A DNA stretch of 64,000 bases from Chloroflexaceae bacterium (GTDB lineage Bacteria > Chloroflexota > Chloroflexia > Chloroflexales > Chloroflexaceae): assembly GCA_034437035.1 (NCBI GenBank), contig DAOTUI010000072.1, positions 55,107 to 119,106 of the forward strand, in the 5' to 3' direction. The notes under the pieces are model-generated. The model ran no database searches and was not told where the DNA came from. It was given only the letters and a program-made list of their open reading frames with translations. Of this stretch, positions 7,649 through 63,711 are shown in pieces. Both the position numbers and the translations under genes were made by a program. Every line of letters starts with the position of its first letter. Position 1 is the stretch's first letter.

Positions 7649-7661
7649 GGCAACCCATCTC

Positions 7662-8816: not shown

Positions 8817-8994
8817 GGTAGCTCCTCCTCCTGATACCGATTTGTTGTCGTAGCCACAGCGAACACCGAGGACGCAGCGATGATCCACGGGAATGTGCCG
8901 GCGCTGCGCCCGTTGCGCCCATTCCGGCTGATTGCCGGTTTGCCGGCACATTGGTATGAGATGGGTTAGCGCTGTATCAGGATACCATAATAAA

Positions 8995-9088
8995 AAGAAC
9001 AGACAAACATCGAACAAAGAACAAACACAATGTCCAGTAGCGCGTCCCCAGTGCGCTTTGTTTTATGTTTCTTTGTTCTGTGTTCTCG
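8995..9088. repeat. Imperfect low-complexity palindrome (GAACAAAGAAC / GTTCTTTGTTC arms) around a GCGCGTCC-like centre
   Basis: Left arm is aagaacagacaaacatcgaacaaagaacaaacac. Right arm is gttttatgtttctttgttctgtgttctcg. Confidence 0.5.
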
Positions 9089-15589: not shown

Positions 15590-15816
15590 AATACCTTTCA
15601 AATAACCGGATCTACGCGGTAGGCGATCAAACCGGACGTTTGACCAGATGTGAGCCAGACTCGCCTGCGGCAGCATGGTACTGTTTTATCTTTTCCACAA
15701 AACATTTTCACAAAGTGAAAATGTTTTGTGGAAAAGGATGGTTTCTTCCGCCCTGCCGGAGGCGCTATCTCCTTCCAGGGGAGTGACCGTGTACCTCGTC
15801 TTATTTGAAAGGTATT
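15590..15816 (-). mobile_element. MITE-like repeat, long form, copy A (reverse core orientation)
   Basis: Outer perfect 16-bp IR AATACCTTTCAAATAA/TTATTTGAAAGGTATT. Core arms are TCGCCTGCGGCAGCATGGTAC and TTCCGCCCTGCCGGAGGCG. Central 22-bp perfect palindrome lies at 15690-15736. Confidence 0.8.
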
Positions 15817-17389: not shown

Positions 17390-17393
17390 CCCG

Positions 17394-17409
17394 TTATTTG
17401 AAATGAATT
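17394..17409. repeat. Solo copy of the MITE long-form outer end (TTATTTGAAATGAATT, 14/16 to TTATTTGAAAGGTATT)
   Basis: Sits in the 24-bp gap between the cyclase stop and the truncated SBP start. The extended match reads cgttatttgaaatgaattac. Confidence 0.45.
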
Positions 17410-17413
17410 ACAC

Positions 17414-20380
17414 TTAATACAACGCCTCGAAGATCAGGTGCGGATCTTGCTTACCTTTGAGGGGCACCGCGCCAAGGGGACGCAACTGGCGGGGTCCATT
17501 CCAGTTGGGCGGCAGGGCACTATGCAGGTTGTGGGAGACAATAATCTGCCCGGGGCGGGCAATGTTGGAGAGCCGGCTGGCCGTATTGACGACATCACCG
17601 ATCAGGGTGTAGTCCAAACGCTGCTCGGAGCCAACATTGCCCACAACCGCGCGCCCAAAGCTGATACCGATGCCCATGCCGATATCCAGGCTCAATTCCT
17701 GACACCAGTCGGTACTCAACCGTGCCAGCGCCTGCTGCATATCAATGGCGGCCCGCAAGGCTCGCTGGGGATCATCCGGTCGGCTGATGGGTGTACCAAA
17801 CACACCGATAATGCCATCGCCCAGAAATTTGTCGATGGTTCCGTCATACTCGTAGAGCACCTCAGTCATGGCATTAAAGTAGCGATTGAGGATCTGCTCA
17901 ATCAGGATATTCGGCTCAAGCCGCTCCGTCATTGAGGTAAAGCCGCGCAGGTCGGCAAAAAGCACAGCAACCTGGCGCTCGGTGGGACGGCCCCACTCCT
18001 GGCCGGCGCTGAGTAACTGCTCGGCAACCGGCGGCGAGACATAGCGGCGAAACACGCTACGCACCCGGTCGCGTTCCTGCCGTTCCAGGGCTTTAATGGC
18101 GCTAATATCCTGGAGCACGGCAACCCGGCCAATCGGCTGGCCGTCGGTGCTGCGTACCGGGGCGACACTCACGCTATAGGTAGTTTCCTGATCGGGCAGC
18201 ACCAGCTCGCTCGGCTTGCCGATGGTATCCCGATTGAGATTCACTGAGAGGAGCGGGAGTAACTCACTCAGCACCAGATCGCCATACCCGTTGACTTCGA
18301 GTTGTCCCAGTGATTTGCCTCGGTTCTGCTTCAGATCAAAATGAAAGCGTTCCTCGGCGGCACGGTTGGCGAGCAGCAACTCATCTTCCGGGCCAATCAG
18401 CAGGATCGGGTCGGCGGCACCGCGCAGGACGGCATTCAGCGTACTGCGCTCATCCTCCACAGCGCGATAGAGGCGCGCATTGTCAATCACCTGGATGATG
18501 AGGCTGGCGATCGTCGTTGCCAGTTCCAGATCGGCATTCCCAATACGATCTTCCCAGCCGGTTGCATCAATGCCGATCAAGCCCATAACATGGGTACCAG
18601 TCAGGAGCGGCACAACAATCAGCGCTTTAACATCGCGTTCCCGGAAAAAGCGATGCAGTGCCTGTAATGCCGGCCTGGTCTGCACATCGGTGACAATACG
18701 CGGCGCGCGCAGATCATGCAGACGAGCCTGCACATCCGACCGAGCAAAATGGTGGCGGATAAACAGTTCACCTTCCACCGTTGCCCCGCCATGCAGCGCT
18801 ACCAGAATATGCTCTGCACCTTCTCCATTATCCAGCAGCACCAAACCGGCCTGCTCAACGCCAAACGCCCGGGCCACCGACTCAGCCGCCAGATGCAGAT
18901 TCTGAATAGCATCAAGCTGTTCGGTAATCGCAACCGAGAGTTTGTTGACCTGATTAAGCTGGCGAATGCGCCACTGTTCATTCTCCAGCAGGCGCGCATT
19001 CCCCAGGGCAATTCCCAACTGGCTGACGATCGCGCTCAGGACGGCTTCTTCATTCGGGCCAAAGGCTGCCGGTATGGGACTCTGCACATTCAGTGTACCC
19101 AGCACCTCGCTACGCAGAACAATCGGCAGCACAATCTCCGACCGGATCGTGGCATCATCGGGCAGCAGGCTGATAAACCGCTCGTCCAGGCGTACATCAT
19201 CCACGCGGGTAATTTGTTGATGCCGGATCGCCCAACCCGTGATGCCCTGTGACATGGGGAAGCGCAACAACGACGGTAGTTCACTGCGCATCATTCCGGC
19301 ACTGGAATGCAGCACCAGATCCCCGCCCTCGCACATCAACACATGCACCTGGGGATAGCCAAACTGCTGATGGACCATATAGGCCACAAGGCGCAGGAGT
19401 TGCTCCGGTTGCATCAGTTCGGACATTAGCGCGCTAATCTCATTGATCCGCCGCAGTTCATCCGCACGCCGCTCCAGCAACTCCTTCTGACGCTGCGTCA
19501 GGCTAAAAAGCTGCGCGCTCTCGAGAGCGACCGCGCTCTGTGCGGCAACCGAACTGAGCAGTTCGATATGCTGCTCGCTAAAATACCCCGGTGTGTGATG
19601 TACCAGGGTAATCACGGCCAGCACGCGCCCCTCACGCACCACCGGCATTGCCGCCACGCTACGCACATTAAAGTGATAGCCGGCATTCCCGATCCAGCGG
19701 GGATCATCGCGCGTGTCGTCAACGATCAGTGACACCCGTTTCTGGAGCACCCAACCGGCCACACCCTGACGCAAAATATCGCTGAGCAGGGGCGTTGCCG
19801 GGTTACGACTGCTGGAATAGCAGACCGTCTGTTCATCTTCGTCGAGCAGAATAATGCTGGCACGCACAGCACCGACGGCATCGGCCAGATGATCGAGGAA
19901 GCGGGTGAGCAGGGTATCCAGTTCAATCGAAGCGCCAAGTTCGCGCGTCAGGTGCAGGAGCAGTTCCGTCTTGCGTTGCTCATTCTGCAGGCCCCGTTGC
20001 GCTCGCTGGAGCCGCAACATCGCGCGCACACGCGCCAGTAGTTCATCAACGGCCAGCGGTTTGACCAGAAAATCATCCGCACCCGCATCCAGGCTCATCA
20101 CACTGGCTTCGAGATCAGTGCGCTCGGTAATAATAATGATCGGGATAAACGGCTTGGATGTATCAGCCTTAAGCCGGCGGGTCAGTTCCAGGCCATTTTT
20201 ATCCGGCAAAAGCAGATTAAACAGGACAAGATCCGGTGTAATCAGGTGCAGATAGGCAAGGGCTTCTTCACCGCCGGCAGCCAGGGAAACTCGATAGCCG
20301 GCCCCACCAAAGGTTTCCTGTAGGAGGGAACGTGTATCCGCATCTTGATCAACAACCAGAATGTGAGATGGTTCTATCAT
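17414..20380 (-). CDS. Response-regulator receiver, multiple GAF (and PAS-like) domains, and a class III adenylate/guanylate cyclase
   Basis: N-terminal ILVVDQDADTRS...DLVLFNLLLPD receiver. C-terminal VAVLFADLRGFTSMTE...KFLGDGIIGVFG cyclase motifs. The likely ATG at 20380 gives MIEPSHILVVD. Confidence 0.85.
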   Translation of the reverse strand: MIEPSHILVVDQDADTRSLLQETFGGAGYRVSLAAGGEEALAYLHLITPDLVLFNLLLPDKNGLELTRRLKADTSKPFIPIIIITERTDLEASVMSLDAGADDFLVKPLAVDELLARVRAMLRLQRAQRGLQNEQRKTELLLHLTRELGASIELDTLLTRFLDHLADAVGAVRASIILLDEDEQTVCYSSSRNPATPLLSDILRQGVAGWVLQKRVSLIVDDTRDDPRWIGNAGYHFNVRSVAAMPVVREGRVLAVITLVHHTPGYFSEQHIELLSSVAAQSAVALESAQLFSLTQRQKELLERRADELRRINEISALMSELMQPEQLLRLVAYMVHQQFGYPQVHVLMCEGGDLVLHSSAGMMRSELPSLLRFPMSQGITGWAIRHQQITRVDDVRLDERFISLLPDDATIRSEIVLPIVLRSEVLGTLNVQSPIPAAFGPNEEAVLSAIVSQLGIALGNARLLENEQWRIRQLNQVNKLSVAITEQLDAIQNLHLAAESVARAFGVEQAGLVLLDNGEGAEHILVALHGGATVEGELFIRHHFARSDVQARLHDLRAPRIVTDVQTRPALQALHRFFRERDVKALIVVPLLTGTHVMGLIGIDATGWEDRIGNADLELATTIASLIIQVIDNARLYRAVEDERSTLNAVLRGAADPILLIGPEDELLLANRAAEERFHFDLKQNRGKSLGQLEVNGYGDLVLSELLPLLSVNLNRDTIGKPSELVLPDQETTYSVSVAPVRSTDGQPIGRVAVLQDISAIKALERQERDRVRSVFRRYVSPPVAEQLLSAGQEWGRPTERQVAVLFADLRGFTSMTERLEPNILIEQILNRYFNAMTEVLYEYDGTIDKFLGDGIIGVFGTPISRPDDPQRALRAAIDMQQALARLSTDWCQELSLDIGMGIGISFGRAVVGNVGSEQRLDYTLIGDVVNTASRLSNIARPGQIIVSHNLHSALPPNWNGPRQLRPLGAVPLKGKQDPHLIFEALY

Positions 20381-26019: not shown

Positions 26020-26101
<82 letters not shown>

Positions 26102-26543: not shown

Positions 26544-29531
26544 ATGAATACCCCAATACCATTTCAACGTCTCACCCAGGGTATGTGCCTCCTCCTCGGC
26601 CTGGCATTTGCCTGGCTCGTTTTGCATCCTGGTGTCGCGCTGACCGCTCCACCGGCACCCTATCTGGTTAAGGATATTGGTACGACCGCCAGTAACCCAT
26701 CCTGGCTGGTGACAATGAATGGACGGTTGTTCTTCAGCGCCACCGACAATCAGACCGGCATGGAAATCTGGACGAGTGATGGTACCCCGGAGGGAACGTT
26801 CCTCCTGAAGGATATTTCCCCGGGAAGCAGTAGTTCATATCCAACCTCATTAACGGTTATGAACGGACAACTCTTCTTTGCCGCCAGTGATGGGAATAGT
26901 GGGCAGGAGCTATGGGTCAGCGATGGTACCGCAGCCGGAACCCGCCTGCTCAAGGATATCCGTACCGGGGCGGAGAGTTCCTCACCGTATAACCTGACTG
27001 CTGTTGGGAAGCAATTATTTTTTGTAGCATATGAGCCGGTCGCCGGGAAAGAACTCTGGGCTAGTGACGGTACTGCGGCCGGAACTCGCCTGGTTAAGGA
27101 TATTCAACCGGGTGACGGCTGGTCATCCCCGGTATACCTGACTGCGCTCAATAGTGGCCTCTTCTTTAGCGCCGATGATGGTGCCAACGGACGTGAGCTC
27201 TGGTTTAGTAATGGTACACCGGCAGGAACATATCTGGTCCAGGATATCGAACCGGGTACCGGTGGCTCGTTCCCTGATAATCTCGTAGCCGGTGCTGATC
27301 GCCTGTTTTTTGTCGCTACGACGAGTGAAACCGGACGCGAGGTATGGAACAGCGGCGGTTCTACGGTGAACACCCGGCTTATTCGTGACATTAATCCAGG
27401 CAGCAGTAGCTCGCTGGCTAACGATCTGGCAGTTGTCAATAAAGAGCTATTTTTTGGTGCTACCAATGGCAGCACCGGGCGTGAACTCTGGAGAAGTGAC
27501 GGGACATTGGCAGGAACGGCTCTGGTGGGGGATTTGAACCCCGGTGCCGCCGAAGGCAAACCAGACCACCTGACCAACGTCAATGGGCAATTATTTTTCA
27601 CCGCAACAAATGGTCAAACGGGGGAAGAACTCTGGACATTGTCCGGCGGAGAAAAATTTGTTCTAATGAAAGATATTGTACCGGGATCAGACGGTTCGTC
27701 TCCCCGGTATTTAACTGCATTTAACGATACAGTTTTCTTCGCTGCAACTGAACCTACATATGGCACTGAACTTTATCAGAGCAACGGCATGGCAAGTGGC
27801 ACATCCATGGTTGCCGACATCGCCCCCGGCTCACTCTCTTCCAACCCGCGATCACTGACTGTCACCGGGACAACGCTCTTCTTTACTGCCGATAACGGAA
27901 CTACCGGCCGCGAATTGTGGGCCTTGCCGCTATCTGCATATGTACCAACACCGACCAACACGGCAACCAACACGCCAGTACCACCGACGCCAACCAACAC
28001 GGCAACTAATACGCCGACCAATACACCCGTGCCGCCCACACCAACCAATACGGCAACCAACACGCCGGTGCCGCCAACGGCAACGAGCACGCCGAAGATA
28101 GTGCCTACCATAACCGGAAATGTTATTTTCGATAACACCGAGGTACCGCTCTGTCTATATGATCCATCCATCATTCGTGTCGATGGACAGGTCAGTCTCC
28201 AGCCGGTTGATGCAGTGGCACGCCTGCAGGTCTCCTGGGAGATTGTGCATCCTCAGGATCTGCTCACCGGGCCTGTATTTGAGAATTACGGGCTTGTGCG
28301 GGATGGTGACCAGTTTAGTGTGGAAGTCGAGTGGCCGGGAATACGACCAGATGATAAAGTTGTCGAGTTGCATGTAAATGCTTTGCTGCTCGATGCTACA
28401 ACTGGCGATCCCCTCATGTCCGAAGAAACGTCTGTGGCATACTACTGGTATGATTGGTACTGTCCACCGCCAACACCGCGACCGGCAACTGACACGCCAA
28501 CGGATATGCCAACTGAGACCAGCACGCTGACGGCGACCGGTACGCCAACGGATGTGCCGACCATAACCAGTACGCCGACCAGTACGCCAACGGATGTGCC
28601 GACCATAACCAGTACGCCGACCAGTACGCCAACGGATGTGCCGACCATAACCAGTACGCCGACCAGTACATTAACGCCGACCAGTACGCCGACCAGTACA
28701 TTAACGCCGACCAGTACATCAACGCCGACTAATACGCCGACACCAACCAGTACGCCGGATCTCTCGCGTGAACCTGAATTCGCCGCATGCCCGGCTGGTA
28801 TGGATGAAATTGGTACGTTCGACAACTATGTGCGACGGGATAAAGAGCCACGTTCGCATACCTACGATCTGGATCTATCTGAAGATGCCCGTTTGACCGT
28901 TCTGGGATATGCTGAGGAAGGGCATCCCGATGCCTGCCCGGATGGACGGCTTTGTGGGCAGGGACAGATGCATGAAGAATTCCGGGTTAGCATCAATGAT
29001 GCAACGATTGGAGTACATCATGATCGTGGGGCCGTTAATACCTGGATTCCGGTAGGCCCCTGGCAAACATCGTCTGTGGTTTCTGCCGATGATAACGTAG
29101 TTATGGAAGTCTCGCATCTGCTTGGTGGGAGAACGGCCGAGTCGGTTTCCTTCAAGCTAACGGTATGCGCGGAACCGGTTACACCGGGAGACGACGACGA
29201 TGATGACGATGACGGCGGCAATGACGATGACGACCCAACAGTCGTAGCCGAGAAGAAGGTAAGTCCTGTTCTGGAGTGTGTTGTCCACGAGGATGACGGC
29301 ACATACACGGCCTATTTTGGGTATTACAACCCGAATGATATTACGGTCGAGATTGATCGCGGCCGGCATAACCGGTTCACACCCAGACCGCAGGAGCGTG
29401 ATCAACCTGATGTCTTCCAACCAGGGCGTAAGCGGGCTGTCTTCAGTGTGCCCTTTAACGGCAATCACCTGGTCTGGACGCTGAATGGAAAAACGTCAAC
29501 AGCGTCACGCGACTCGCAACGTTGCCGTTGA
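26544..29531 (+). CDS. Large secreted ELWxxDGT-repeat protein with Pro/Thr linkers, uncharacterised C-terminal domains and a poly-Asp tract
   Basis: Signal-like N-terminus. About 13 repeats of G.ELW.SDGT.AGT.L.KDI.PG. PTNTATNTPVPPT and TPTDVPTITSTPTS linkers. DDDDDDDDGGNDDDD tract. GGAG SD. Confidence 0.8.
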   Translation: MNTPIPFQRLTQGMCLLLGLAFAWLVLHPGVALTAPPAPYLVKDIGTTASNPSWLVTMNGRLFFSATDNQTGMEIWTSDGTPEGTFLLKDISPGSSSSYPTSLTVMNGQLFFAASDGNSGQELWVSDGTAAGTRLLKDIRTGAESSSPYNLTAVGKQLFFVAYEPVAGKELWASDGTAAGTRLVKDIQPGDGWSSPVYLTALNSGLFFSADDGANGRELWFSNGTPAGTYLVQDIEPGTGGSFPDNLVAGADRLFFVATTSETGREVWNSGGSTVNTRLIRDINPGSSSSLANDLAVVNKELFFGATNGSTGRELWRSDGTLAGTALVGDLNPGAAEGKPDHLTNVNGQLFFTATNGQTGEELWTLSGGEKFVLMKDIVPGSDGSSPRYLTAFNDTVFFAATEPTYGTELYQSNGMASGTSMVADIAPGSLSSNPRSLTVTGTTLFFTADNGTTGRELWALPLSAYVPTPTNTATNTPVPPTPTNTATNTPTNTPVPPTPTNTATNTPVPPTATSTPKIVPTITGNVIFDNTEVPLCLYDPSIIRVDGQVSLQPVDAVARLQVSWEIVHPQDLLTGPVFENYGLVRDGDQFSVEVEWPGIRPDDKVVELHVNALLLDATTGDPLMSEETSVAYYWYDWYCPPPTPRPATDTPTDMPTETSTLTATGTPTDVPTITSTPTSTPTDVPTITSTPTSTPTDVPTITSTPTSTLTPTSTPTSTLTPTSTSTPTNTPTPTSTPDLSREPEFAACPAGMDEIGTFDNYVRRDKEPRSHTYDLDLSEDARLTVLGYAEEGHPDACPDGRLCGQGQMHEEFRVSINDATIGVHHDRGAVNTWIPVGPWQTSSVVSADDNVVMEVSHLLGGRTAESVSFKLTVCAEPVTPGDDDDDDDDGGNDDDDPTVVAEKKVSPVLECVVHEDDGTYTAYFGYYNPNDITVEIDRGRHNRFTPRPQERDQPDVFQPGRKRAVFSVPFNGNHLVWTLNGKTSTASRDSQRCR
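28542..28727 (+). repeat. In-frame perfect tandem repeats inside the ELW gene (3 x 42 bp, then 2 x 30 bp)
   Basis: acgccaacggatgtgccgaccataaccagtacgccgaccagt x3 (TPTDVPTITSTPTS). Then acattaacgccgaccagtacgccgaccagt x2. Confidence 0.8.
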
Positions 29532-33356: not shown

Positions 33357-34154
33357 CTATCCACGCTCCGCGCTATAGGCCGCAACTGCCGCAACTTCCA
33401 GACGGGCCAGTTCCAGCCGAAACGCCCAGTTCTGCGGGTCAGCATCCATCCGGGCAATCCATGCCGCTGCTCCCCCCAATGTTTCAAGCTCATCAGCATA
33501 GCGATCCAGCGTCTCAAACTCCAGTCCTTCGGTTTCACAGTAGCCCATCCGCAGATCGGATATGCGCTGCAAAAAGAGTGGCCACGAGCAGTCACTGCCG
33601 ACGGTATCGTCCCGGCACTCAGCCACGATATGCTGTGCTGCGCGACGCGCGAGCCCCCGCGAGGCGGCCGTTACATCCCAGGGCAGACCACTCACGGTGG
33701 CAAAGACATGGTTTACAATGCCTTCGGTGTCACGCTGGATTCGGGGGTGCGAGTCAAAGGCGCGGCGCGTTCGCCCCAGCACAGTAAAATCATACTGCAA
33801 GAGTGTATCAAGTATCAGCCGCAGTTCATCGGGATAGTATTCCGCCCAGTGCAATACCCGGTCAAAGTCACAGAAGTGGATATGGGTGGCCTGCGGTACA
33901 TTCACCAGAGCCTGCTCAACGGCAAGCCGCCGCCACAACCCCAGATGCAAATGGCCCTGGGGTAAATCGGCCCCGCCACTACTAACATATGCACCGGTTG
34001 CCTGAAGCAACGAACGTGACGCCGGTAGCGTTGCCGGTGTCACCAGAATAACAATAGAGCTATAGATTTCGTGCAGCAGTGGTACTATGCGCGCAGTCTG
34101 ATCATAGAGGCGTCCATCAGCGTCATGGTGTGTTGCGGCGAGTGCAACCGTCAT
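33357..34154 (-). CDS. Hypothetical protein, no motif recognised
   Basis: 265-aa ORF with coding-like codon usage, in the same orientation as and 61 bp upstream of the DapA-like gene. The antisense ORF 33249-33965 is rejected. Confidence 0.5.
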   Translation of the reverse strand: MTVALAATHHDADGRLYDQTARIVPLLHEIYSSIVILVTPATLPASRSLLQATGAYVSSGGADLPQGHLHLGLWRRLAVEQALVNVPQATHIHFCDFDRVLHWAEYYPDELRLILDTLLQYDFTVLGRTRRAFDSHPRIQRDTEGIVNHVFATVSGLPWDVTAASRGLARRAAQHIVAECRDDTVGSDCSWPLFLQRISDLRMGYCETEGLEFETLDRYADELETLGGAAAWIARMDADPQNWAFRLELARLEVAAVAAYSAERG

Positions 34155-34318: not shown

Positions 34319-34433
34319 TACTGTCTTTGTCGCCAGCTAACGCATCGCGTAGCAACGTACTGGTCTTTTGACTAAAATTTGTGCGTTGGATTCTTTAAAG
34401 CATACCGTAGGTTTTGTGCTGTGACGATGACTG

Positions 34434-34889
34434 AATGTCGTGTTGTAACGCTAGTACGATGTCGTGTTGTAATGTCGTGTTGTAACGCTAGTACGATGTC
34501 GTGCTGTAATGTCGTGTTGTGCTGTTGTGCTGTGACGCTGGTACGATGTCGTGCTGTGCTGTTGTGCTGTGACGCTGATACGTTGTCGTGCTGTGCTGTT
34601 GTGCTGTGACGCTGATACGTTGTCATGCTGTGCTGTCGTGTTGTGACGTCGTGCTGTGATACTGGTACGATGTCGTGCTGTAATGTCGTGTTGTGATGTC
34701 GTGCTGTGATACTGGTACGATGTCGTGCTGTAATGTCGTGTTGTGATGTCGTGCTGTAATGTCGTGTTGTGATGTCGTGCTGTAATGTCGTGTTGTGATG
34801 TCGTGCTGTGATACTGGTACGATGTCGTGTTGTGACACTGGTACGATGTCGTGTTGTGATGCCTGCTGTGACGCTCCTACGACACGTTA
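34434..34889. repeat. Compound tandem array: about 24 units of 13 bp (ATGTCGTGYTGTR) punctuated by about 9 units of 11 bp (AYRCTRGTACG)
   Basis: Manual parsing of the run. The plus strand is G+T rich. All minus-strand frames are open, which produces spurious ORFs such as 34372-34899. Confidence 0.85.
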
Positions 34890-36041: not shown

Positions 36042-36051
36042 GTTTCAATAA

Positions 36052-36268
36052 CAGGACGTACGCGGTGTGCGTGCAAACGGACCGTTTGCTCTCGATAACG
36101 GCGTATTTCGCCTGCGGCAGCATGGTACGTTTTTGTCTTTTTCCGAAACATGTGGCTCTCCGAGCCACATGTTTCGGAAAAAGACTGTCCCATTCCACCC
36201 TGCCGGAGGCGCATCGGGCCAGTTGTCCAGGCAGACGCCTGGGTTGGGAACCAACCGCGTAACTCCTG
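36052..36268 (-). mobile_element. MITE-like repeat copy B1 with perfect 7-bp TSD TCAATAA
   Basis: TIRs CAGGACGTACGCGGT / ACCGCGTAACTCCTG. TSD at 36045-36051 and 36269-36275. Central 24-bp perfect palindrome at 36135-36185. Confidence 0.9.
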
Positions 36269-36276
36269 TCAATAAT

Positions 36277-36450
36277 ACACGTTACGGGGTCACTGACCCG
36301 ACAGGAGATTCCGCCTCCGACAGGGCAGAAGAAATCATCTTTTTTCACAAAAATTTTGTAAAAAAAGATCAAAAGTACCATGCTGCCGCAGGCGAATCGG
36401 GCTTTTGGTTGGTCAACAGACCGAAATAAGGCTGCACCGTGTAACGCGTG
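36277..36450 (+). mobile_element. MITE-like repeat copy B2 (shortened, degenerate central palindrome)
   Basis: Arms TTCCGCCTCCGACAGGGCAGAAG and GTACCATGCTGCCGCAGGCGAA. The central stem is reduced to about 14 bp with 1 mismatch. Confidence 0.7.
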
Positions 36451-36457
36451 GAAATAC

Positions 36458-36527
36458 CAGGACGTACGCGGTGGATGGTCAAACCGGACGTTTGACCAGA
36501 TGGAAGCCAGACTCGCCTGCGGCAGCA
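36458..36527 (-). mobile_element. Half MITE copy B3 (one TIR, CAAAC hairpin and one arm), abutting the pfkB-family stop codon
   Basis: CAGGACGTACGCGGTGGATGGTCAAACCGGACGTTTGACCAGATGGAAGCCAGACTCGCCTGCGGCAGCA is near-identical to the left part of copy A, then the match stops. Confidence 0.65.
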
Positions 36528-36537
36528 GAGATAGCGC

Positions 36538-44777: not shown

Positions 44778-45125
44778 GGACCACGAACGACGCGAAACGA
44801 ACGAAACCCACGAAACGACAAGTGCCGACCGGAGCGCTGCCCTGCGTCTCGCGTCATTCGCGGGTTTTCGTGCCGTTCGTGGTCCAAAACTCTCCCCAGT
44901 CATCACTCCCTCGTTGCCAGCCCCCATCATAGCAGCGTAGTCCCAGTGAAAGCAGCGCAGCACAACGGGCCATTCGTGTATTCGTGGTCAGCATTCGTGG
45001 ACGGTTCTCCCACCGCACCGGTTCCCAATCGCCAATCCCCCCGCGCCAGCCTCATTCGTGCATTCGTGGTCCGCATTCGTGGACGGTTCTCCCACCACCC
45101 CAGTCCCCAATCCCCACTCCCTAGC
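44778..45125. repeat. Cluster built from TTCGTGG/CCACGAA motifs: imperfect palindrome of about 110 bp plus an 82-bp tandem duplication
   Basis: Palindrome arms at 44778-44819 and 44853-44885. Direct repeats CATTCGTGYATTCGTGGTCMGCATTCGTGGACGGTTCTCCCACC at 44971 and 45053. Confidence 0.65.
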
Positions 45126-45674: not shown

Positions 45675-46310
45675 TTACTCAGCCAGTCGAACGAACCGCC
45701 CATTGAAACCGTGCGCCCGGTGAACCAGCCAGAGGTCATGCAACCACATTTCCGTCTGGCGCATACCATTTGCCGAACTCCACACAATGTCGCGCTCGAA
45801 GGTGACGACCTGCTCCCCCGGACCAACGATGACCCAGAACCAGCGCCCGTCGGCCATATTGCGGCACTTGACCTTCATTCCCATAATCGTCACGGCGAGT
45901 CCCCCGGCCACCTCATCACAGGTGATCAGAATCTTCTCAACGTGAGGTGCCACCCAGTGAACTTTGATAGATGCAGCCAGATCTGGTGCATGCTCCTCCA
46001 GATAGCGGAGGGCCACTGCGCGGGCTGCATCTTCTGCCGGCAACGTTGCCGATGAGAGCTCTTCGGACAGACTGGCGTCCATGCGCATCTCGCCTTTGAG
46101 CATGCCTTCCGGAGTGACAAGGGCGCTGTAGTGCTCGCCGCACAATGCCGGAGCTTCCGTACCGGTGGGCTCAAACCGCAGGTGGTAGACCGATTCGCCA
46201 TCTACCGTGACCTCCTGAACCCAGAGCGATCCAAAACTATCGGGTGGCTGGACCTGTGCAATAACCGCCTCCGGTACGCCCTGAACATCCTGAAATACCC
46301 GTGTTTCCAT
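45675..46310 (-). CDS. Hypothetical protein (211 aa), possibly a PepSY-like segment
   Basis: AAGGAAGG SD. LPAEDAARAVALRYLEEH loosely resembles PepSY. No firm family call. Confidence 0.55.
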   Translation of the reverse strand: METRVFQDVQGVPEAVIAQVQPPDSFGSLWVQEVTVDGESVYHLRFEPTGTEAPALCGEHYSALVTPEGMLKGEMRMDASLSEELSSATLPAEDAARAVALRYLEEHAPDLAASIKVHWVAPHVEKILITCDEVAGGLAVTIMGMKVKCRNMADGRWFWVIVGPGEQVVTFERDIVWSSANGMRQTEMWLHDLWLVHRAHGFNGRFVRLAE

Positions 46311-46391: not shown

Positions 46392-46441
46392 CCCTAAACT
46401 CTTGGATTACACCAGCTATAGCCTGGCTCTGCGTCATCAGA

Positions 46442-47626
46442 CTACTCGGCAAACCTGGGGTGCGGGCGGGTGACATGGCCTGGAGCAACATTGATCATCG
46501 CAGCCAGGGCAAACAGGCTGCCGAGTATCAGGCAAAGCCCCCCAAACCCGAGGGATGCAACCAGCGGTGGGAGTTGCGGTCCCAGGCTGGCACCCACAAA
46601 CAACACAAACGTGTAGAGCGCAATGGCAAGCCCACGTTGCCTGGGTGCCAGGGAGCCGATAAGCGCGATGAGGCTGGGCACCGTAATGCTCACACCCGCC
46701 ACGAAGACAATGCTTGCAGCGACCAGGAACCAGACGGTCGCGCCGACATTCGCTACTGCTGCGGCGGTGAAGAGGCCCACCGCACCGATGCCAAACCCCC
46801 AGCAGACCACTGCGCGCGGCCCATAGGAACGAATGAACTGGGCAGCGATCAGTGGCAGCAGCATGGCGGGCACCGCAGCCGCCCTGACCATTGTCAGATC
46901 CAGCCCGGCTTGCGTGATAGCATCACCGGCAAACAGCGCCAGGGCGGTATAGAATGATACAAAGGCAAAGAGCAGCACCAGTGCCGCCGCGTACCCCCGC
47001 ACCAGGGCACCGTTCTTCAGCAGCCCGGGCAACCCGCTATAGGCTCCGAAGAGACCCTTAAGGTTGCGATGACCAGGCTTGCGCTCCTCCGGCAGCAGCC
47101 AGATAAGCCCGGCCCCCACCGCATAGACACCAGCCAGCGGCAACACTGCCGCCGATAGAGCGCCTGACGCGCCACCGTAGAGCTGCCCCAGCAGGCCGGC
47201 AAGCAGGAACGCCGTGCTCAGGCATGCGATGCCGAAGGTGCCGCGTCGCGCGGGCAGAACCTCGGGGAGGTAGGCCAGGGCCACGGGTGGCAAGGCCGCC
47301 GCCACAAATCCCTGCAGAATTCGCGCACCAACCACCGTCTCGAACGTCGGCGCGAGAGCGACCAGCACACTCGCCAGCGCCAGCGCCAGTAGTCCTGGTG
47401 CCATCACCACCTTGCGCCCTAACCGATCCGACAGCGGTCCAAACACCAGGAACCCTGTCGCGTAGGCGATGCCGAACAGCGTCAGCACCAACCCAGCAGC
47501 AGTCACCGGAACTCCATACTGCCCGGCTACCTGTTCAAGGAGTGGGACTGGTATGTACAGTTGCGAGACAACCGCCAGCGCACAGGCAGCCAGAACACCG
47601 ATAATGGTTGCGGGCGAGCTTTTCAC
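46442..47626 (-). CDS. MFS transporter (12 TM)
   Basis: GPLSDRLGRK loop motif and hydrophobic repeats. GTG 47626 follows GAAGGAG. Confidence 0.85.
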   Translation of the reverse strand: MKSSPATIIGVLAACALAVVSQLYIPVPLLEQVAGQYGVPVTAAGLVLTLFGIAYATGFLVFGPLSDRLGRKVVMAPGLLALALASVLVALAPTFETVVGARILQGFVAAALPPVALAYLPEVLPARRGTFGIACLSTAFLLAGLLGQLYGGASGALSAAVLPLAGVYAVGAGLIWLLPEERKPGHRNLKGLFGAYSGLPGLLKNGALVRGYAAALVLLFAFVSFYTALALFAGDAITQAGLDLTMVRAAAVPAMLLPLIAAQFIRSYGPRAVVCWGFGIGAVGLFTAAAVANVGATVWFLVAASIVFVAGVSITVPSLIALIGSLAPRQRGLAIALYTFVLFVGASLGPQLPPLVASLGFGGLCLILGSLFALAAMINVAPGHVTRPHPRFAE

Positions 47627-48512
47627 GTTACATCTCCTTCCGTTTTCCCCCTTCCCTGACCATACCAGGTGCAACTGAAGCAGTCAGAGAAGATCGATAT
47701 AACCACACCTTACGTTTACTGTAATTTATGAACCGCATTGTAGCACAGACAGAAATAATGTCAACCCAACGTCAGGTGTAGTTTTGTAAAGGTTGTGTTA
47801 AGCGTCGTTTCATAGAAGGTGGGCATTTCTGAACACCGGCAACCGGAACGCCGATCAGGGCTGCGGGAACAAGGTTCACTGTGAGGCACGAGATAGCAGG
47901 GTGAAGCATACAGTCAACTCATCGGGAGTAACTGCACGACATGACGTACGGCTGCAAAGGATTTGATCCGGCATAGCTAAAGGTTCAGGACCGAGGAGCA
48001 TACAATATTATGCACTACCTCTCTGATCCGGCAGTCAGGATCAGTACAAAAGAATGCACGGTCACAGGCAATCGGACGGCAAACTGGAACATTCCGCAGA
48101 ACAGTGTCTACTGATCTCCGGGTATTTCCAGGGAGTACTCGCAGGAATCACTTTCTTCACAAATAGTTTATTTACCTGGTTTTTACCACAATGTTACATT
48201 TTTCACAACGCTGGTTACGATAGGTTTTTTTACCGAACCAAAACGAGTTAAACCTGGCACTTCAGCAGGATTATCCCACATTCAGGACAGTGTACACCTG
48301 CTATGTGCGGCGTCATACGGGTACAACCAGAGGGTCAGGCTATTAACCATAATTAGATGGCAATATGGATTTGCCTGTTACTCCAGGAGGTATCCGGGTT
48401 AACTGGTACCGGGAACCCTGTCTTTCCGGCCGTTGAAAAATGTATTTTTACCTGATACAGTAATGTAGAGAGAAGACGTTTCTAGAAGAATTTTCTCGCG
48501 TTTTGCGGATCA

Positions 48513-48547
48513 CTGCTACAATTTCACAAGGCGGGAAATTGTAGCAG
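48513..48547. other. 13-bp perfect stem hairpin in the ORF-free gap
   Basis: CTGCTACAATTTC-ACAAGGCGG-GAAATTGTAGCAG. A TTGAAA-17 nt-TACAGT promoter-like pair lies about 50-80 nt upstream on the plus strand. Confidence 0.5.
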
Positions 48548-48644
48548 TAGTGGTCAAGAGGTTATTTGGATCGCCGGCCGGCTCATAGCGCATCTGCACC
48601 TGAGTCATGCCGGCGTAAGAGGTAGTTGTACACAAACAAATGGG

Positions 48645-49100
48645 TTAAGCTCTGGTGAGCGGTGTTGCTGGGCGCTCTCGGGCTTTCCGTATGGCCTGTT
48701 CAAGCATACCCTCAATCCGGGAGATATTCGTTTGTAGATCATCACGGAAGCGCTCGAGTTCGGCAAGTTTATGCTCCGTCTCGGCAAGTTGTTCGCGGAG
48801 AATTTTCAGCACCTGCTGCTTGCCCATGACACCGGATGGCTCATCAAAGTAGAGATCGATGACTCCTCGGATCTCTTCCAGCGAGAGACCGAGTTGTTGG
48901 AGTTGCTTGATCTTATGCAGTCGGGCAAGCGCTTCCTGATTATAGTAGCGATGACCACCGGTCGCCCGTTCAGTAGGTGCGAGTAACCCCTCCTCCTCAT
49001 AGTAGTGGATCGTGCGATGGCTGATATCCGCCCGCCGGGCCAGTTCGCCTATCCGCATCCGCTCTGGTGCTTCCGAGATGCTGATTTCTTTATCCGGCAT
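48645..49100 (-). CDS. MerR-family transcriptional regulator
   Basis: IGELARRADISHRTIHYYEEEGLL HTH and a coiled-coil C-terminus. Confidence 0.85.
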   Translation of the reverse strand: MPDKEISISEAPERMRIGELARRADISHRTIHYYEEEGLLAPTERATGGHRYYNQEALARLHKIKQLQQLGLSLEEIRGVIDLYFDEPSGVMGKQQVLKILREQLAETEHKLAELERFRDDLQTNISRIEGMLEQAIRKARERPATPLTRA

Positions 49101-49418
49101 ATTTCACCACCTGACGTAAATTTCCGATTCCTATGCAATAGTTTACCTCAATCCCGGCCCTACGGCAAGTGTTACCGGTGTCGGGATAAAAATCCGCAGA
49201 TCTGCCGGGCAATTACGCCGGCGTGAGAATAAGCCAGAGGAGTGCGCGTAGTTGGAGAAGATAACGCCCGGCCATGCGAGATAAGTTCGCACGGCCAGGC
49301 AATCGTGGTATTGCCGGGGGTGGGCTTTCAGCAGAACAACCTGAAAGTTCACGGAAAGCAGCACCATAACCGGGGTACAGCGGTACGCCGCACATCGAAC
49401 CAGCTTCAGTTACATCGG

Positions 49419-50732
49419 TTATAGCCCCGGCTGCGCCAGCAATGTCGCCACCAGATCAGCCCGGGCCACATTGCGCTGCTCACCGCTGCCCAGATCTTTC
49501 AGGACAACCTCGCCCCGCGCCAGATCATCGGGGCCCAGCACCAGCACATAGCGCACGCCCTTGCGGTCGGCCTCCTTGAACTGCTTGCCCAGGCTGGTAT
49601 CCGGCTCCAGCGCGGTTATCACATTCAACCCCGCCGCGCGCAGTTCCCGCGTCAGATGCAGGCTGGCGGCAAGCTGATCGGCGCTAAAGATAGTCATAAA
49701 AACCTGCGCGGTAGTCTGGGGACGCGGACCAATATTCAGCTCCTCCATCACATCGTGCAGGCGATCAATGCCGAAGGCCAGGCCAACGGTTGGCACGGCG
49801 CGGTTGGCAAAGAGGCCAACCAGTTCGTCATAGCGCCCGCCCCCCAGCAGTGAGCCCTCGGGCCAGTGCGACGAGATTGACTCGAACACCGCGCCGGTGT
49901 AGTAGGAGAGCCCGCGCGCCAGGCGCGGCGCAACGGCGTAACATTCGGCGGGCACACCCATATTTTCCAGATAGGTGACAATGGCTCGCAGATTCTCAAC
50001 AGCGGCCAGGGCGCGTTCATCACCCGCCAGCCGTTGGGCCAGTTCGGTCAGGATCGCGTCCGACGCGCCCTCCAGCATGACCATCTCCAGAATATGCTCT
50101 ACCGCCGCGCGCGCCACACCGCTCCGCAGCAGTTCTTCCCGCACCCCATCCGCGCCGATCTTGTCAAGTTTGTCAATGGCGCGGTAGACCCCACCGGCAG
50201 CTTCTTCATCCAGGCCACTGGCACGCGCAATGCCACCCAGCACCTGGCGATGGTTCAGCAGCGTCACAAAGCTCGGAAACTCGAGCGCGCCGAGCGCATC
50301 GGTGACAACCGCGACAATCTCGGCGTCGGCCAGCGGGGAGGAACTACCCACAATATCAACATCGGCCTGCCAGAACTCACGATAGCGCCCGCGTGCCGGC
50401 CGCTCACCGCGATAGCTGGGACCAATCGCGTAGCGCCGCCAGGGCAGATTAATCTGGCCGGCATACTGCGCCACCACCCGTGCCAGGGGTACCGTCTGAT
50501 CATAGCGCAGGGCCAGCCGCCGCCCGCCATGATCCTCAAAGCGGTAGATCAACTTCTCCTCGTCGCCCAGCTTGCCCTCAAGCGTTTCGGCATACTCCAC
50601 CACCGACGTTGAGAGCGGCTCAAAGCCATAACGCTCAAACACCGCCGTCAGGGTTGAGATAATATGCTGCCGCAGCAACATTGCCTGCGGCAGATGATCG
50701 CGCATTCCTTTGATATTCTGAACCTTTGTCAT
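49419..50732 (-). CDS. hisS: Histidine--tRNA ligase
   Basis: Class II motifs: GMRD, RYDQTVPLAR, FWQADVD, GGGRYD. C-terminal anticodon-binding domain. Confidence 0.95.
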   Translation of the reverse strand: MTKVQNIKGMRDHLPQAMLLRQHIISTLTAVFERYGFEPLSTSVVEYAETLEGKLGDEEKLIYRFEDHGGRRLALRYDQTVPLARVVAQYAGQINLPWRRYAIGPSYRGERPARGRYREFWQADVDIVGSSSPLADAEIVAVVTDALGALEFPSFVTLLNHRQVLGGIARASGLDEEAAGGVYRAIDKLDKIGADGVREELLRSGVARAAVEHILEMVMLEGASDAILTELAQRLAGDERALAAVENLRAIVTYLENMGVPAECYAVAPRLARGLSYYTGAVFESISSHWPEGSLLGGGRYDELVGLFANRAVPTVGLAFGIDRLHDVMEELNIGPRPQTTAQVFMTIFSADQLAASLHLTRELRAAGLNVITALEPDTSLGKQFKEADRKGVRYVLVLGPDDLARGEVVLKDLGSGEQRNVARADLVATLLAQPGL

Positions 50733-50800
50733 GTTTTTTCTCTGGTAGTGTTATACTTAACTATACGAGGTACGCGATAGATACACGAAACGGCTGTTTG

Positions 50801-50954
50801 CTAAGACATGGTTCAGAATCAGCGTTTCTTACTTGACAGTCTGAACGATCTCGGGTTGTCAGAAAAAACCTTCTGGCGCATCAGGAAGGGATTAGTAAGC
50901 ATTTTCATTATGTTAACTGTCAAGTAGGATTGAACCATGTCTTAGGGGCAATAC
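50801..50954. repeat. IR-bounded 154-bp module (15-bp perfect ends CTAAGACATGGTTCA/TGAACCATGTCTTAG plus inner IR TACTTGACAGT/ACTGTCAAGTA)
   Basis: Read directly. It abuts MITE copy C1 and has no coding capacity. Confidence 0.65.
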
Positions 50955-50958
50955 CTTT

Positions 50959-51165
50959 CAAATAACCGGGCTTCCGTGGTTCCTTACCTGGAAGAGGATA
51001 TCGCCTCCGGCAGGATGGAAGAAACCATCCTTTTTTCACAAAGTGGAAATTTTTTGTGAAAAAAGATAAAAATGTACCATGCTGCCGCAGGCGAAACCGT
51101 TCTGTAGCGGAGCAAACGTCCGGTTTGCACTGCTACTACGCAGGTTCTGCTCTTTGAAAGGTATT
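50959..51165 (+). mobile_element. MITE-like repeat, long form, copy C1 (forward core)
   Basis: Outer ends AATACCTTTCAAATAA / CTCTTTGAAAGGTATT. Arms ATCGCCTCCGGCAGGATGGAAG and GTACCATGCTGCCGCAGGCGAA. The central stem is 13 bp. Confidence 0.85.
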
Positions 51166-51227: not shown

Positions 51228-51424
51228 CACAAGTTACGCTGTCACGAACCTGAAAGGACATTTTGCCTCCGGCAGGGCGGAAGGCTCCTGTCTTTGTTCA
51301 CAAAACATTTGCACTCTGTGCAAATGTTTTGTGAACAAAGATACAAAAGTACCATGCTGCCGCAGGCGAATCTGACTTCCATCTGATCAAACATCCGATT
51401 TGTCCACCCACCGCGTAACGCGTG
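51228..51424 (+). mobile_element. MITE-like repeat copy C2
   Basis: TIRs CACAAGTTACGCTGT / ACCGCGTAACGCGTG. Central 24-bp perfect palindrome at 51291-51341. Both conserved arms are present. Confidence 0.85.
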
Positions 51425-54231: not shown

Positions 54232-54852
54232 ATGACTACCTACACCGAACAACAGGCGTGTACTCCAATCGCCCTGAATGTGAAGAACCTCAACCAGAAC
54301 GCGGTACTCCCCTATGGCATGCAAGTTGACCATGTCTTTTCGGCAATGACCGATTTCCTTGACTTCCTGGGATTTGTGAATAACCAGTTGCACAGCAAAG
54401 GGCTAACGCGCCTGGAGTCAATGCTCATGCCTGCAAATTTTAGCAGTATTGTCGGCGAGTTTATGACAGTGACAATTCCCAAACACTGCGCCAGTATTAC
54501 GCGAAACAAATACCATAACGGCCATCCTGATCTGATACCGGCAGGAATGTTTCCCAACAACGAGGTACAACATTCGACTACTGGCATAGAGGTCAAAGCG
54601 TCGCGTTATTCACGCGGCTGGCAAGGACATAATCCGGAGGATATCTGGTTGATGGTCTTTGTGTTCGATAGTAACCGCGCCCGGGATACGCAACCCAGAC
54701 CATTCAAGTTTGTGAAGGTGGTAGGTGCGCAACTGGCAAAAAGCGACTGGCTTTTCTCAGGTAGGTCGGCACAGAGTCGCCGTACCATTACCGCCAGTGT
54801 TACCAATACCGGCTATCAAAAGATGATGGCGAACTGGCTCTACAAAGCCTGA
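54232..54852 (+). CDS. Candidate type II restriction endonuclease (PD-(D/E)xK)
   Basis: HPD-x20-IEVK fits PD...(D/E)xK. It is convergent with, and 13 bp 3'-overlapping, a DNA methyltransferase gene. No other family motif recognised. Confidence 0.55.
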   Translation: MTTYTEQQACTPIALNVKNLNQNAVLPYGMQVDHVFSAMTDFLDFLGFVNNQLHSKGLTRLESMLMPANFSSIVGEFMTVTIPKHCASITRNKYHNGHPDLIPAGMFPNNEVQHSTTGIEVKASRYSRGWQGHNPEDIWLMVFVFDSNRARDTQPRPFKFVKVVGAQLAKSDWLFSGRSAQSRRTITASVTNTGYQKMMANWLYKA

Positions 54853-56111: not shown

Positions 56112-56166
56112 TGTGACTGTCAAGCGAGAAAAAGTAGCCTGGGGCTAAGAGGGAATTACGCTTTAA

Positions 56167-56361
56167 CAGGACTTACGCAGTTCTCCATCTGGAGATGTAT
56201 TTCGCCTCCGGCAGGGCGGAACAGACCACCTTTTTCACAACATTTTTGCACAATGTGCAAAAATGTTGTGAAAAAAGATCAAAACGTACCACGCTGCCGC
56301 AGGCGAATCGGGCTTTCATCCGGTCAAACGTCCCGTTTGCATGTCAACTGCATAAGTCCTG
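56167..56361 (+). mobile_element. MITE-like repeat copy D with perfect 7-bp TSD GCTTTAA
   Basis: TIRs CAGGACTTACGCAGT / ACTGCATAAGTCCTG. TSD at 56160-56166 and 56362-56368. The central perfect palindrome lies within 56230-56276. Confidence 0.92.
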
Positions 56362-56487
56362 GCTTTAAGGTGTGATCCGGATGGGGAGGGCAGTTCTCAA
56401 GCTGTACACCCCCAAATCTCGGTGCTCTCGGTGTTCTCGGTGGCGCAAAAGACCGCAGACGGCGGTGCTCTCCGTAACCCTCTGTCG

Positions 56488-57207: not shown

Positions 57208-57280
57208 CTGTGCTGTCGCAGGCGATTCTGCCGTTCACCGGGTAAAATGCCCGGTTTGATGAACGACCGCGTAAGTCGTG
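57208..57280 (+). mobile_element. Half MITE copy (3' arm, CAAAC-type hairpin, right TIR only)
   Basis: GCTGTCGCAGGCGATT...ACCGGGTAAAATGCCCGGT...ACCGCGTAAGTCGTG lies between the two methyltransferase genes. Confidence 0.6.
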
Positions 57281-58566: not shown

Positions 58567-58709
58567 AAAATACTTGCCTGAGCAAACATTACTAAGGCAA
58601 GTATAGCGGGTGAGACTTCGGTTGTCAAGTGTTCTGCGTGTCATTCAGCTCAACTCTAGAACATGTTCATCCTCATACTTTTCGATCAACACGCTGATAA
58701 CTTCAATCA

Positions 58710-58905
58710 CAGGAGTTACGCGGTCACGAACCCAAAAGGACATTTCGCCTCCGGCAGGGCGGAAGAAACCACTCTTTTTCACAAGATTTTTGCACTTAGT
58801 GCAAAAATCTTGTGAAAAAGAAGGAAAAGTACCACGCTGCCGCAGGCGAAATCCGCCGTTATCGGGAACAAAGGACCCGTTTGAACGCGCACTGCGTAAG
58901 TCCTG
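58710..58905 (+). mobile_element. MITE-like repeat copy E with perfect 7-bp TSD TCAATCA
   Basis: TIRs CAGGAGTTACGCGGT / ACTGCGTAAGTCCTG. TSD at 58703-58709 and 58906-58912. Central 22-bp perfect palindrome at 58774-58820. Confidence 0.92.
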
Positions 58906-59419
58906 TCAATCAGTGATGCCAACGGGTGGGTGAAGATGAAACCCACCCAGATCAATCAGGGTGTCAAGCATGGCAACCAGATTGGTTGTACTCATACTCA
59001 GTATGGGGAACAAACAGGAGCGGCGCAAGGGTCGGTCATACCTGTGCAACGGTTTCCATTTCGCTGCTCGTCATTGCGTTATTCTTTCCGTTTTTCAGGA
59101 TCAAAAAGGTATATCATCGAGTTTGTCGTTCGCTGATAAATCTGCGCGTTTTAACTCTACCGGGATTGCTATAGTATAGCCGGTTTTCAGTTTCGCAAAG
59201 AGGAGAATGGTTCGGCTATGGAGTGCAGGAGCATAGCTCCCGGCAACTGCTTACCGCGAACATCTTAGACGGCAGCATGGCTGCCGCACGCCAAAATGAG
59301 CCGCGTTGGACAAACGTTAGAATGGCCCGGCGGTGGCTCCGACTGCCGACACGCCTGCCGGATCTGTGCTATACTTACACTTGTACCGCATTACAGACGT
59401 ATCCGAGTGAGAGCAACTG

Positions 59420-61917: not shown

Positions 61918-62107
61918 CACGACGTACGCAGTGGGTGCTCAAACCAGAGGTTTTATCCCGGTAGCACAATGCATTCTGCCTGCGGCAGCATGGTACTCTT
62001 TTTCACAAAAATTTGCTCACGGAGCAAATTTTTGTGAAAAAGATCTGGGTTCTTCCGCCCTGCCGGAGGCGAGATCCGCTTTCAAACGCGTGACTGCGTA
62101 ACGCCTG
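61918..62107 (-). mobile_element. MITE-like repeat copy F (reverse core)
   Basis: TIRs CACGACGTACGCAGT / ACTGCGTAACGCCTG. Central 21-bp perfect palindrome at 61998-62042. Flanks TTATGTA/TTTTTTA may be a decayed TSD. Confidence 0.85.
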
Positions 62108-63301: not shown

Positions 63302-63318
63302 TACGACGTACGCGGTGG
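63302..63318. repeat. Solo MITE terminal repeat (TACGACGTACGCGGTGG)
   Basis: Matches the TIR of copies B1/B3. It is followed by CGAA-rich simple sequence, not by the element core. Confidence 0.4.
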
Positions 63319-63374
63319 GATCCGGATCACGAATAACGCGAAATAAGCGAAAAGCGCGAAACTGCTGGTGCTGA

Positions 63375-63569
63375 CATGCGTTACACGAGCCTATGTTCAA
63401 TGGGGAATGGCGCCTCTAGCCGGACCGAAGAAACCCGCTTTTTCACAAAAATGTTGCACTTTATGCAACATTTTTGTGAAAAAAGATCAAAATGTACCAC
63501 GCTGCCGCAGGCCAAGACTGCCTTTGTGGATGTACATGTCTGATTTGTATGCCCATTGCGTAACTCGTA
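63375..63569 (+). mobile_element. MITE-like repeat copy G (5' arm decayed)
   Basis: Central 20-bp perfect palindrome at 63439-63483. The 3' arm GTACCACGCTGCCGCAGGCCAA is present. TIRs are degenerate (CATGCGTTACACGAG / ATTGCGTAACTCGTA). Confidence 0.75.
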
Positions 63570-63660: not shown

Positions 63661-63711
63661 CAGGAGTTACCTGGTACGGTCTGTTCCGTCCTGATGACCG
63701 CGTAACTCCGG
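63661..63711. mobile_element. Mini-derivative consisting of the two TIRs only (internal deletion)
   Basis: CAGGAGTTACCTGGT ... ACCGCGTAACTCCGG are separated by 21 bp. A further TIR fragment GTAACTTGTGTGA follows. Confidence 0.45.

Follow-up and report, generated by a model that had tools for sequence, protein, structure and literature searches.

Families of small, non-coding mobile elements (MITEs) are known from Bacteria, such as Correia/CREE of Neisseria, ERIC, RUP, Nezha and Chunjie. Among eukaryotic transposons, the P-element and hAT-type superfamilies have ends that start with CA, an 8-bp duplication at a palindromic target and conserved subterminal sites. In the table of the IS4 family, the ISPepr1 subgroup is the only one listed with 7–8-bp direct repeats together with AT-rich targets, and its ends start with 5'-CT and follow the consensus YT-AA-YTT---A (De Palmenaer et al. 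2008, PMC2266710). In addition, a related Chloroflexales lineage has been reported with rayT genes (PMC7486959).

The repeat analysed here lies in a 64-kb stretch of DNA, referred to in its entirety as the window, which is ordinary chromosome with 58% G+C and contains, among others, the genes for HisRS, RibF, DeaD, GltB/D, BtpA and PfkB. The repeat constitutes a family of MITEs, i.e. small mobile elements without coding capacity, that had not been described before and that belongs to a Kouleothrix-related group of Chloroflexales. The best account of this family is that of non-autonomous cut-and-paste transposons, for which we estimate a probability of roughly 0.85. As in other MITEs, the elements are small and non-coding, they possess terminal inverted repeats and target-site duplications (TSDs), and they occur as dispersed copies with insertion polymorphism. 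A keyword search of the literature found no MITEs from Chloroflexi, and an exact-sequence search found no match to the end or box sequences; the family adds a well-supported MITE family to a phylum for which none was found described in the literature searched.

Copies and anatomy of the family

The copies and remnants in the window, with B1 as the reference copy, are the following:

3400–3517 (approx.), + strand: decayed relic with a recognisable end, both boxes eroded and the hairpin lost (nhmmer E = 9.7e-6)
15606–15800, − strand: full copy with degenerate ends and an extra outer inverted repeat (15590–15605, 15801–15816); 19-mer, nhmmer
36045–36051: left TSD of B1, TCAATAA, read directly and the same as 36269–36275
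36052–36268, − strand: B1, reference copy of 217 bp with ends CAGGACGTACGCGGT and ACCGCGTAACTCCTG
36052–36066 and 36254–36268: ends of B1
36074–36088: CAAAC/GTTTG hairpin of B1
36110–36128: right box of B1 (19-mer)
36135–36185: perfect palindrome of B1, 24-bp stem
36192–36212: left box of B1
36269–36275: right TSD of B1, TCAATAA, which doubles as the spacer to B2
36276–36450, + strand: B2, an older copy with degenerate ends and a shortened central hairpin (nhmmer E = 1.2e-35)
36375–36393: exact 19-mer of B2
36451–36457: 7-bp spacer GAAATAC between B2 and the half copy, a decayed TSD copy (TCAATAC here in the relative)
36458–36528, − strand: half copy with an end, the CAAAC hairpin and a right-box remnant (nhmmer E = 4.4e-15)
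50764–50778, + strand: solo end remnant upstream of hisS
50966–51149, + strand: full copy of the outer-repeat subfamily (outer repeat 50950–50965, 51150–51165); 19-mer, nhmmer
51228–51424, + strand: full copy (nhmmer E = 7.9e-53, 19-mer)
56167–56361, + strand: full copy with the exact 7-bp TSD GCTTTAA (56160–56166, 56362–56368); 19-mer
57211–57280, + strand: half copy, being the right half with a perfect end (nhmmer E = 5.7e-13)
58710–58905, + strand: full copy nearest to the family consensus, with the exact TSD TCAATCA (58703–58709, 58906–58912)
61918–62107, − strand: full copy with the decayed TSD TTATGTA/TTTTTTA (5/7); 19-mer
63302–63569, + strand: long variant with an extra module of ~70 nt between left end and left box; 19-mer
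63661–63711, + strand: mini copy of 51 bp, two ends with the interior deleted

All nine full copies contain the exact 19-mer GTACCAYGCTGCCGCAGGC, for which nine matches did not occur in any of 100 shuffles and the chance expectation is 0.06, and all nine are recovered by an nhmmer profile built from 30 copies (E = 1e-34 to 1e-54). The original count of at least nine full copies is thereby confirmed, as is its description of B1 as an element with inverted ends and TCAATAA on both sides. Beyond the full copies, the window has two half copies, the mini copy, the decayed relic and the solo end, which amounts to at least 13 copies and fragments in 64 kb. The repeat finder splits pieces of the element among families D5–D7, D9 and D12–D15. 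Some of the original positions need correction. The copies given as starting at 15590 and 50959 are real, but the family ends lie at 15606–15800 and 50966–51149. Among the supposed partial copies, those at 36458 and 57208 (57211–57280) stand as half copies and that at 63661 is a 51-bp pair of ends; the one at 63302 is not a separate partial but the left end of the long variant 63302–63569, which includes the copy placed at 63375, and that at 17394 is only a short stretch of the outer flanking repeat. The relic at ~3400–3517 and the solo end at 50764–50778 had been overlooked.

Copies have a length of 145–275 bp, within the limit of ~600 bp for a MITE, with most being 190–220 bp and the longer variant ~270 bp, and no conserved ORF was found inside them. 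The additional module of the long variant was considered as a coding remnant and rejected, its translations containing stops and frame shifts. Each element is bounded by 15-bp ends, CAsGAsTTACGCrGT and the same sequence inverted at the opposite end, and both ends are recognised with at most four mismatches in 67 of 95 cores from the window and the loci listed. In the 30-copy alignment of ~195 nt, the left end is followed by a short variable hairpin, the left box (arm1) GCCTCCGGCAGGGCGGAAG and a T-rich linker; the middle is formed by a perfect AT-rich hairpin, an A-rich linker and the right box (arm2) GTACCAYGCTGCCGCAGGC; and a variable stretch, a CAAAC-N-GTTTG hairpin and the right end complete the element. 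In the consensus fold, the left and right boxes form a helix of 11 bp in which nearly all copies retain a single C.C mismatch. Single strands are predicted to fold as a rod with a z of about −10 (B1, z = −10.6; RNA fold of the copy 58710–58905, z = −10.2).

Around some copies whose own ends are degenerate lies an additional outer inverted repeat of 16 nt, AATACCTTTCAAATAA/TTATTTGAAAGGTATT, after which GGGATTAGGGG is frequently found. The 16-nt repeat also occurs to the right of 51424 and at ~17390–17415 in the window, and in two of the related loci (L027 near 423, L065 near 1366); it may represent either a second element in nested position or a subfamily whose ends are longer. Since it wraps the copies listed at 15590 and 50959, their flanking TCAAATAA is inverted and forms no direct duplication. 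Furthermore, other small elements carry the same 15-bp ends around different GC-rich hairpins and have no boxes (L012 2493–2645, L015 7303–7477, L027 3816–3963, L028 near 4301). Several cargo types seem to be moved by the same transposase or a related one.

Target-site duplications and insertion polymorphism

Duplications were scored for 67 two-ended elements, taken from the window and from the 74 loci listed for 7 MAGs of Chloroflexales. Of the 67, 32 have exact direct repeats at their flanks (22 of 7 bp, 10 of 8 bp), compared to 0.54% exact matches when the left flank was paired with the right flanks of other elements. With one mismatch allowed, 48 of 67 copies qualify, against 4.3% in the mismatched-flank controls. 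The recurrence of duplications at other copies is therefore beyond chance. The three clean 7-bp duplications read originally, TCAATAA, GCTTTAA and TCAATCA, are all exact; what has to be given up is a fixed length of 7 bp, the duplication being of either 7 or 8 bp. The targets match the palindromic consensus TNANTNA or TNANNTNA, which reads identically on both strands. A symmetric target of this kind is expected where a symmetric transposase complex recognises the DNA. Among the 7-mer duplications, T is found at position 1 in 21 of 22, A at position 3 in 20 of 22, T at position 5 in 20 of 22 and A at position 7 in all 22. At 27 of 134 element ends, exactly one 7–8-bp spacer separates the element from the next one, an arrangement that would be produced by repeated insertion into a duplicated preferred target. 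Upstream of BtpA, such an array is formed by B1, B2 and the half copy.

This array is also a site at which related genomes differ. Relatives were found by a protein-guided scan of metagenome contigs with BtpA, and two of them, L118 and L119, are 96% identical to the window in BtpA at the amino acid level and ~90% identical in the flanks at the nucleotide level. Their PfkB–BtpA spacer aligns to that of the window except for a single gap of 405 bp spanning B2 and B1. At this site the window reads TCAATAA–B1–TCAATAA–B2–GAAATAC–half copy; L118 and L119 lack both B1 and B2 and retain one 7-mer, reading half copy–GTATTGA–AACATGAGG, in which GTATTGA corresponds to TCAATAC on the + strand of the window. 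The half copy itself (36458–36528), which begins 10 nt past the PfkB stop codon, has an ortholog in L118. Immediately downstream of BtpA the situation is reversed: L118 and L119 have two copies, flanked by the TSD TCAATGA, that the window lacks. This filled/empty polymorphism, the recurrent duplications and the occurrence outside this region support the MITE reading proposed originally. L199, which is syntenic with the window but more diverged, is without any copies; the copy at 61918–62107 is missing from its syntenic DUF3307–Crp spacer, in a genome too diverged for empty sites to be read at the base level. No empty sites were found in contigs of the same population, all of which are identical to the window; these come from a JGI metagenome, the MAG GCA_964638505.1 and Andean microbial-mat assemblies.

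Two further contigs, L075 and L076, from other assemblies of this population, are 100% identical to the window over 46419–50942 and then diverge at the outer edge of a copy (their position 2791). Past this point they have RlmN and a standard copy, and the window has two copies and RibF. At 50942, an element coincides with a rearrangement or with the boundary between haplotypes. The elements mark places where the genomes of these MAGs are rearranged and their contigs break, in this one case with the haplotype break exactly at the copy edge.

The family extends beyond this region. A scan of 185,579 species genomes for the 19-mer yielded at least 74 loci in at least 7 MAGs, and all matches listed are from Chloroflexales: Kouleothrix sp. 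STL-CHL26, Chloroflexaceae F7_114, bin.95, SZAS-1, Roseiflexaceae SMAG_U9509, N1_Bin_185 and L.E.CH.5. A search for the 19-mer in viral contigs and a search for a full copy in plasmids gave no match.

The central hairpin and the inner boxes

The central hairpin of 18–25 bp is perfect irrespective of the age of a copy, for which decay of the TSD served as proxy. Of 93 copies, 87 possess a stem of at least 12 bp (mean 21.5 bp), and the loop is mostly 3 nt long. Perfect stems are found in 65 copies and only 1.8% of stem pairs are mismatched, though the sequence identity of the stems between copies is ~70%. With increasing TSD decay, the ends rise from 4.8% to 13% mismatch per site, while the stem stays at 1.0–1.5% per pair. 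An orthologous copy with a double hairpin in two MAGs (L057 1830–2150 and L073 1578–1898) has 6 point differences in 321 nt and an AAA/TTT swap in both 3-nt hairpin loops, which, in MAG assemblies, may also be an assembler or library artefact at the palindromes. Complementary loop pairs (ACA/TGT, TCC/GGA and AAA/TTT) recur throughout the family. The perfection of the hairpin and the loop flips point to template switching and not to selection. The explanation that fits best, which we hold at about even odds, is template switching or recombination within the palindrome, by which one arm is copied from the other and the loop is flipped. On this reading, in which one arm would frequently be copied from the other, 'compensatory' changes in the stem are on their own no evidence of function. 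The ~90 palindromes, whose arms stay identical while the sequence drifts and the loops flip, form a data set for the study of palindrome template switching.

The boxes behave differently from the other parts of the element. In the 30 aligned copies, the mean pairwise identity is 0.80–0.81 for the ends, 0.885 for the left box, 0.70 for the hairpin and ~0.5 for the subterminal stretches. For the right box it is 0.99, a value that is inflated because the 74 listed loci were retrieved by this exact 19-mer; among secondary copies in the loci listed, roughly half have the exact 19-mer and 22 have it with 1–3 mismatches. The original observation that conservation is higher in the inner arms than in the ends is borne out by the left box, and by the right box subject to this bias. 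The hint of a constraint beyond mobility that was attached to it fares less clearly: the arms do exceed the ends and the right box persists across lineages, whereas the left box decays, the relic is boxless and the copies have no bias with respect to genes.

A plausible, if tentative, reading of the inner region is that of a cis-acting module maintained through selection between lineages of the element; it might, for instance, bind the transposase internally or assist synapsis. A more far-reaching reading, which we regard as unlikely, makes the inner unit a functional module of its own, made up of the perfect hairpin, the A-rich linker and the 19-nt box GTACCAYGCTGCCGCAGGC, the box being paired with the left box across the conserved pyrimidine-pyrimidine mismatch. 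Different transposon shells would have borne this module through at least 7 Chloroflexales lineages, and a protein would recognise it either in folded form, as DNA or RNA, or as a binding site inside the element. Such a module would explain why the box persists longer than the ends, the left box and the sequence of the hairpin. The conserved 19-nt box offers a concrete candidate site for protein binding.

Quite improbable is a MITE shell with cargo useful to the host, in which the hairpin and 19-nt box would act as a DNA site bound by protein or as a structured RNA with a regulatory, processing or terminator-like role, spread by transposition and subsequently kept by selection on the host. The right box is exact in nine of nine full window copies and persists in lineages in which ends, left box and hairpin sequence all are different, or which have no left box, as a site selected by the host would; by contrast, the left box is more diverged in older copies (8.6% per site, compared to 2.5% in young ones), both boxes are lost in the relic 3400–3517, and hairpin-less copies exist. 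The pyrimidine-pyrimidine mismatch conserved in the helix of the boxes is also in line with such a site. The immobile half copy, compared between the window and L118, has an identical box remnant and CAAAC hairpin and 5 of 15 end positions changed, in a single orthologous comparison (n = 1). Since MITEs with the same ends can be boxless, the boxes are no universal requirement of that transposase, and the right box is not simply needed for mobility. Against a role for the host, the copies are randomly oriented relative to neighbouring genes (14 same, 13 opposite), their distribution over divergent, tandem and convergent spacers is 18:27:9 with no enrichment at 3' ends, and Rfam gives generic hairpin noise only. 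The balance favours selection among element lineages, i.e. a cis role in propagation, over a host function.

All copies lie between predicted genes, as originally stated. It is very improbable that they are genes for small RNAs or intrinsic terminators acting in both directions, multiplied by duplication and flanked by coincidental repeats. The palindrome is laid out as A-tract, stem and T-tract, with a few copies flagged by a simple terminator scan; the stems, however, are AT-rich and mostly without a U-run outside the stem, and the copies are common between divergent promoters and not enriched between convergent genes. The reading as intrinsic terminators was rejected on gene context, orientation and the AT-rich stems. 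The strong predicted folding would be expected of an RNA gene, but no Rfam family corresponds to the copies: at the gathering threshold only a tRNA is found in the window, and E-value searches of the copies return sub-threshold miRNA-hairpin matches only. Furthermore, the TSDs and the empty site indicate insertion, not local duplication.

Transposase search, mechanism and known systems

In accordance with the original claim that the window contains no transposase, none of the 40 ORFs of at least 200 aa scanned against Pfam belongs to a transposase family, and five have no match at all. Likewise, no autonomous partner with these ends was found in the window or in ~560 kb of related loci, in MAGs whose contigs tend to break at IS copies. 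Pairs of ends 350–6000 bp apart with matching TSDs, screened over the ~560 kb of loci, proved to be tandem MITEs only, and apparent 'orphan' ends are those of other MITE types or truncated copies. A general screen of the loci for inverted-repeat-bounded units of 0.7–4 kb with TSDs gave nothing credible. ORFs beside 19-mers in the most divergent lineage are not bounded by ends and by eye not transposase-like, the places considered as candidates proved to be ordinary genes, and the end motif in viral contigs gave 35 single matches, with apparent 2-kb pairs being phage structural genes, and is attributed to chance.

Some other features of the window were recorded in the course of the analysis. 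The ORF at 6578–7699 (− strand) encodes 373 aa, has a high third-position G+C and no Pfam match, and adjoins a WD40 protein at 7686–9017 (− strand). A 995-aa ORF at 26544–29531, also without Pfam match, follows a tRNA at 26025–26098 and contains long runs of repeats of 12, 18 and 42 nt (27945–28757) that would encode a Thr/Pro-rich protein. Other ORFs of at least 200 aa without a Pfam match are at 33357–34154, 45675–46310 and 54232–54852. The spacer downstream of BtpA (34421–34861) is dense in short imperfect tandem units with periods of 8, 13, 21 and 37 nt that resemble GTCGTG(C/T)TGT(A/G)A, and the intergenic stretch 44971–45121 has two 69-nt direct repeats, 82 nt apart and 88% identical, with CATTCGTG units.

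The sequences show what the ends and their duplications are, which target consensus is used, that arrays exist, that related genomes differ in the presence of copies and that the window has no transposase; a mechanism can be proposed on this basis. A transposase encoded elsewhere would recognise the 15-bp ends, 5'-CAsGAsTTACGCrGT and its inverse, and would cut AT-rich targets that match TNANTNA or TNANNTNA with a stagger of 7 or 8 bp, the target being duplicated upon repair. Each insertion would duplicate a good target, and later copies would therefore often enter the duplicate, building head-to-tail arrays. The enzyme, probably of the DDE type, would act in trans; its class is one that we infer only from the 7–8-bp duplications and the palindromic target because no autonomous element was found. 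The defined ends and the target rule of 7–8 bp at TNA(N)NTNA should lead directly to this transposase.

It is extremely improbable that the copies, instead of being DDE-type MITEs, are palindromes of the REP/REPIN type that a RAYT (HUH) transposase mobilises in the form of single-stranded hairpins. They do resemble these in their high copy number, intergenic position and long imperfect palindrome, the stem of which retains a mismatch, and rayT genes are reported from a related Chloroflexales lineage (PMC7486959). REPs, however, are 20–40 nt long, have GTAG or CGTC heads and no such terminal inverted repeats, and insert without target duplication, whereas the present elements (most 190–270 bp) are 5–10 times as long, lack a GTAG or CGTC head motif, and have 7–8-bp TSDs in about half of the copies and a single 7-mer at the empty site.

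With ISPepr1 of the IS4 family, the elements share the 7–8-bp direct repeats and the AT-rich targets. They are unlike it in their ends, which start with 5'-CA(G/C)GA(G/C)TTACGC. A derivation from IS4/ISPepr1 is disfavoured by the ends 5'-CAGGAGTTACGCGGT, which have A and not T at position 2 and depart from the consensus at positions 4, 9 and 13 as well. The family is further defined by a DDE transposase with a YREK motif, and no transposase that could be compared with it was found in the window or the ~560 kb of loci. The P-element and hAT-type transposons offer an analogy in their CA-starting ends, the palindromic target and the conserved sites tens of bp inside the ends; these superfamilies are, however, eukaryotic, and there is no evidence of relatedness.

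The closest likeness is to the bacterial MITEs, which are also small, non-coding, high-copy and intergenic elements with terminal inverted repeats and TSDs, fold into long hairpins, have a modular interior and, as is proposed for the present family, rely on a transposase encoded elsewhere. The present family has no sequence relation to them and differs in its 7–8-bp duplication at TNA(N)NTNA, instead of TA, and in its Kouleothrix-related Chloroflexales host. Furthermore, it is set apart from these MITEs by an inner 19-nt box that is more conserved than the ends and by frequent head-to-tail arrays in which neighbouring elements share one duplication.
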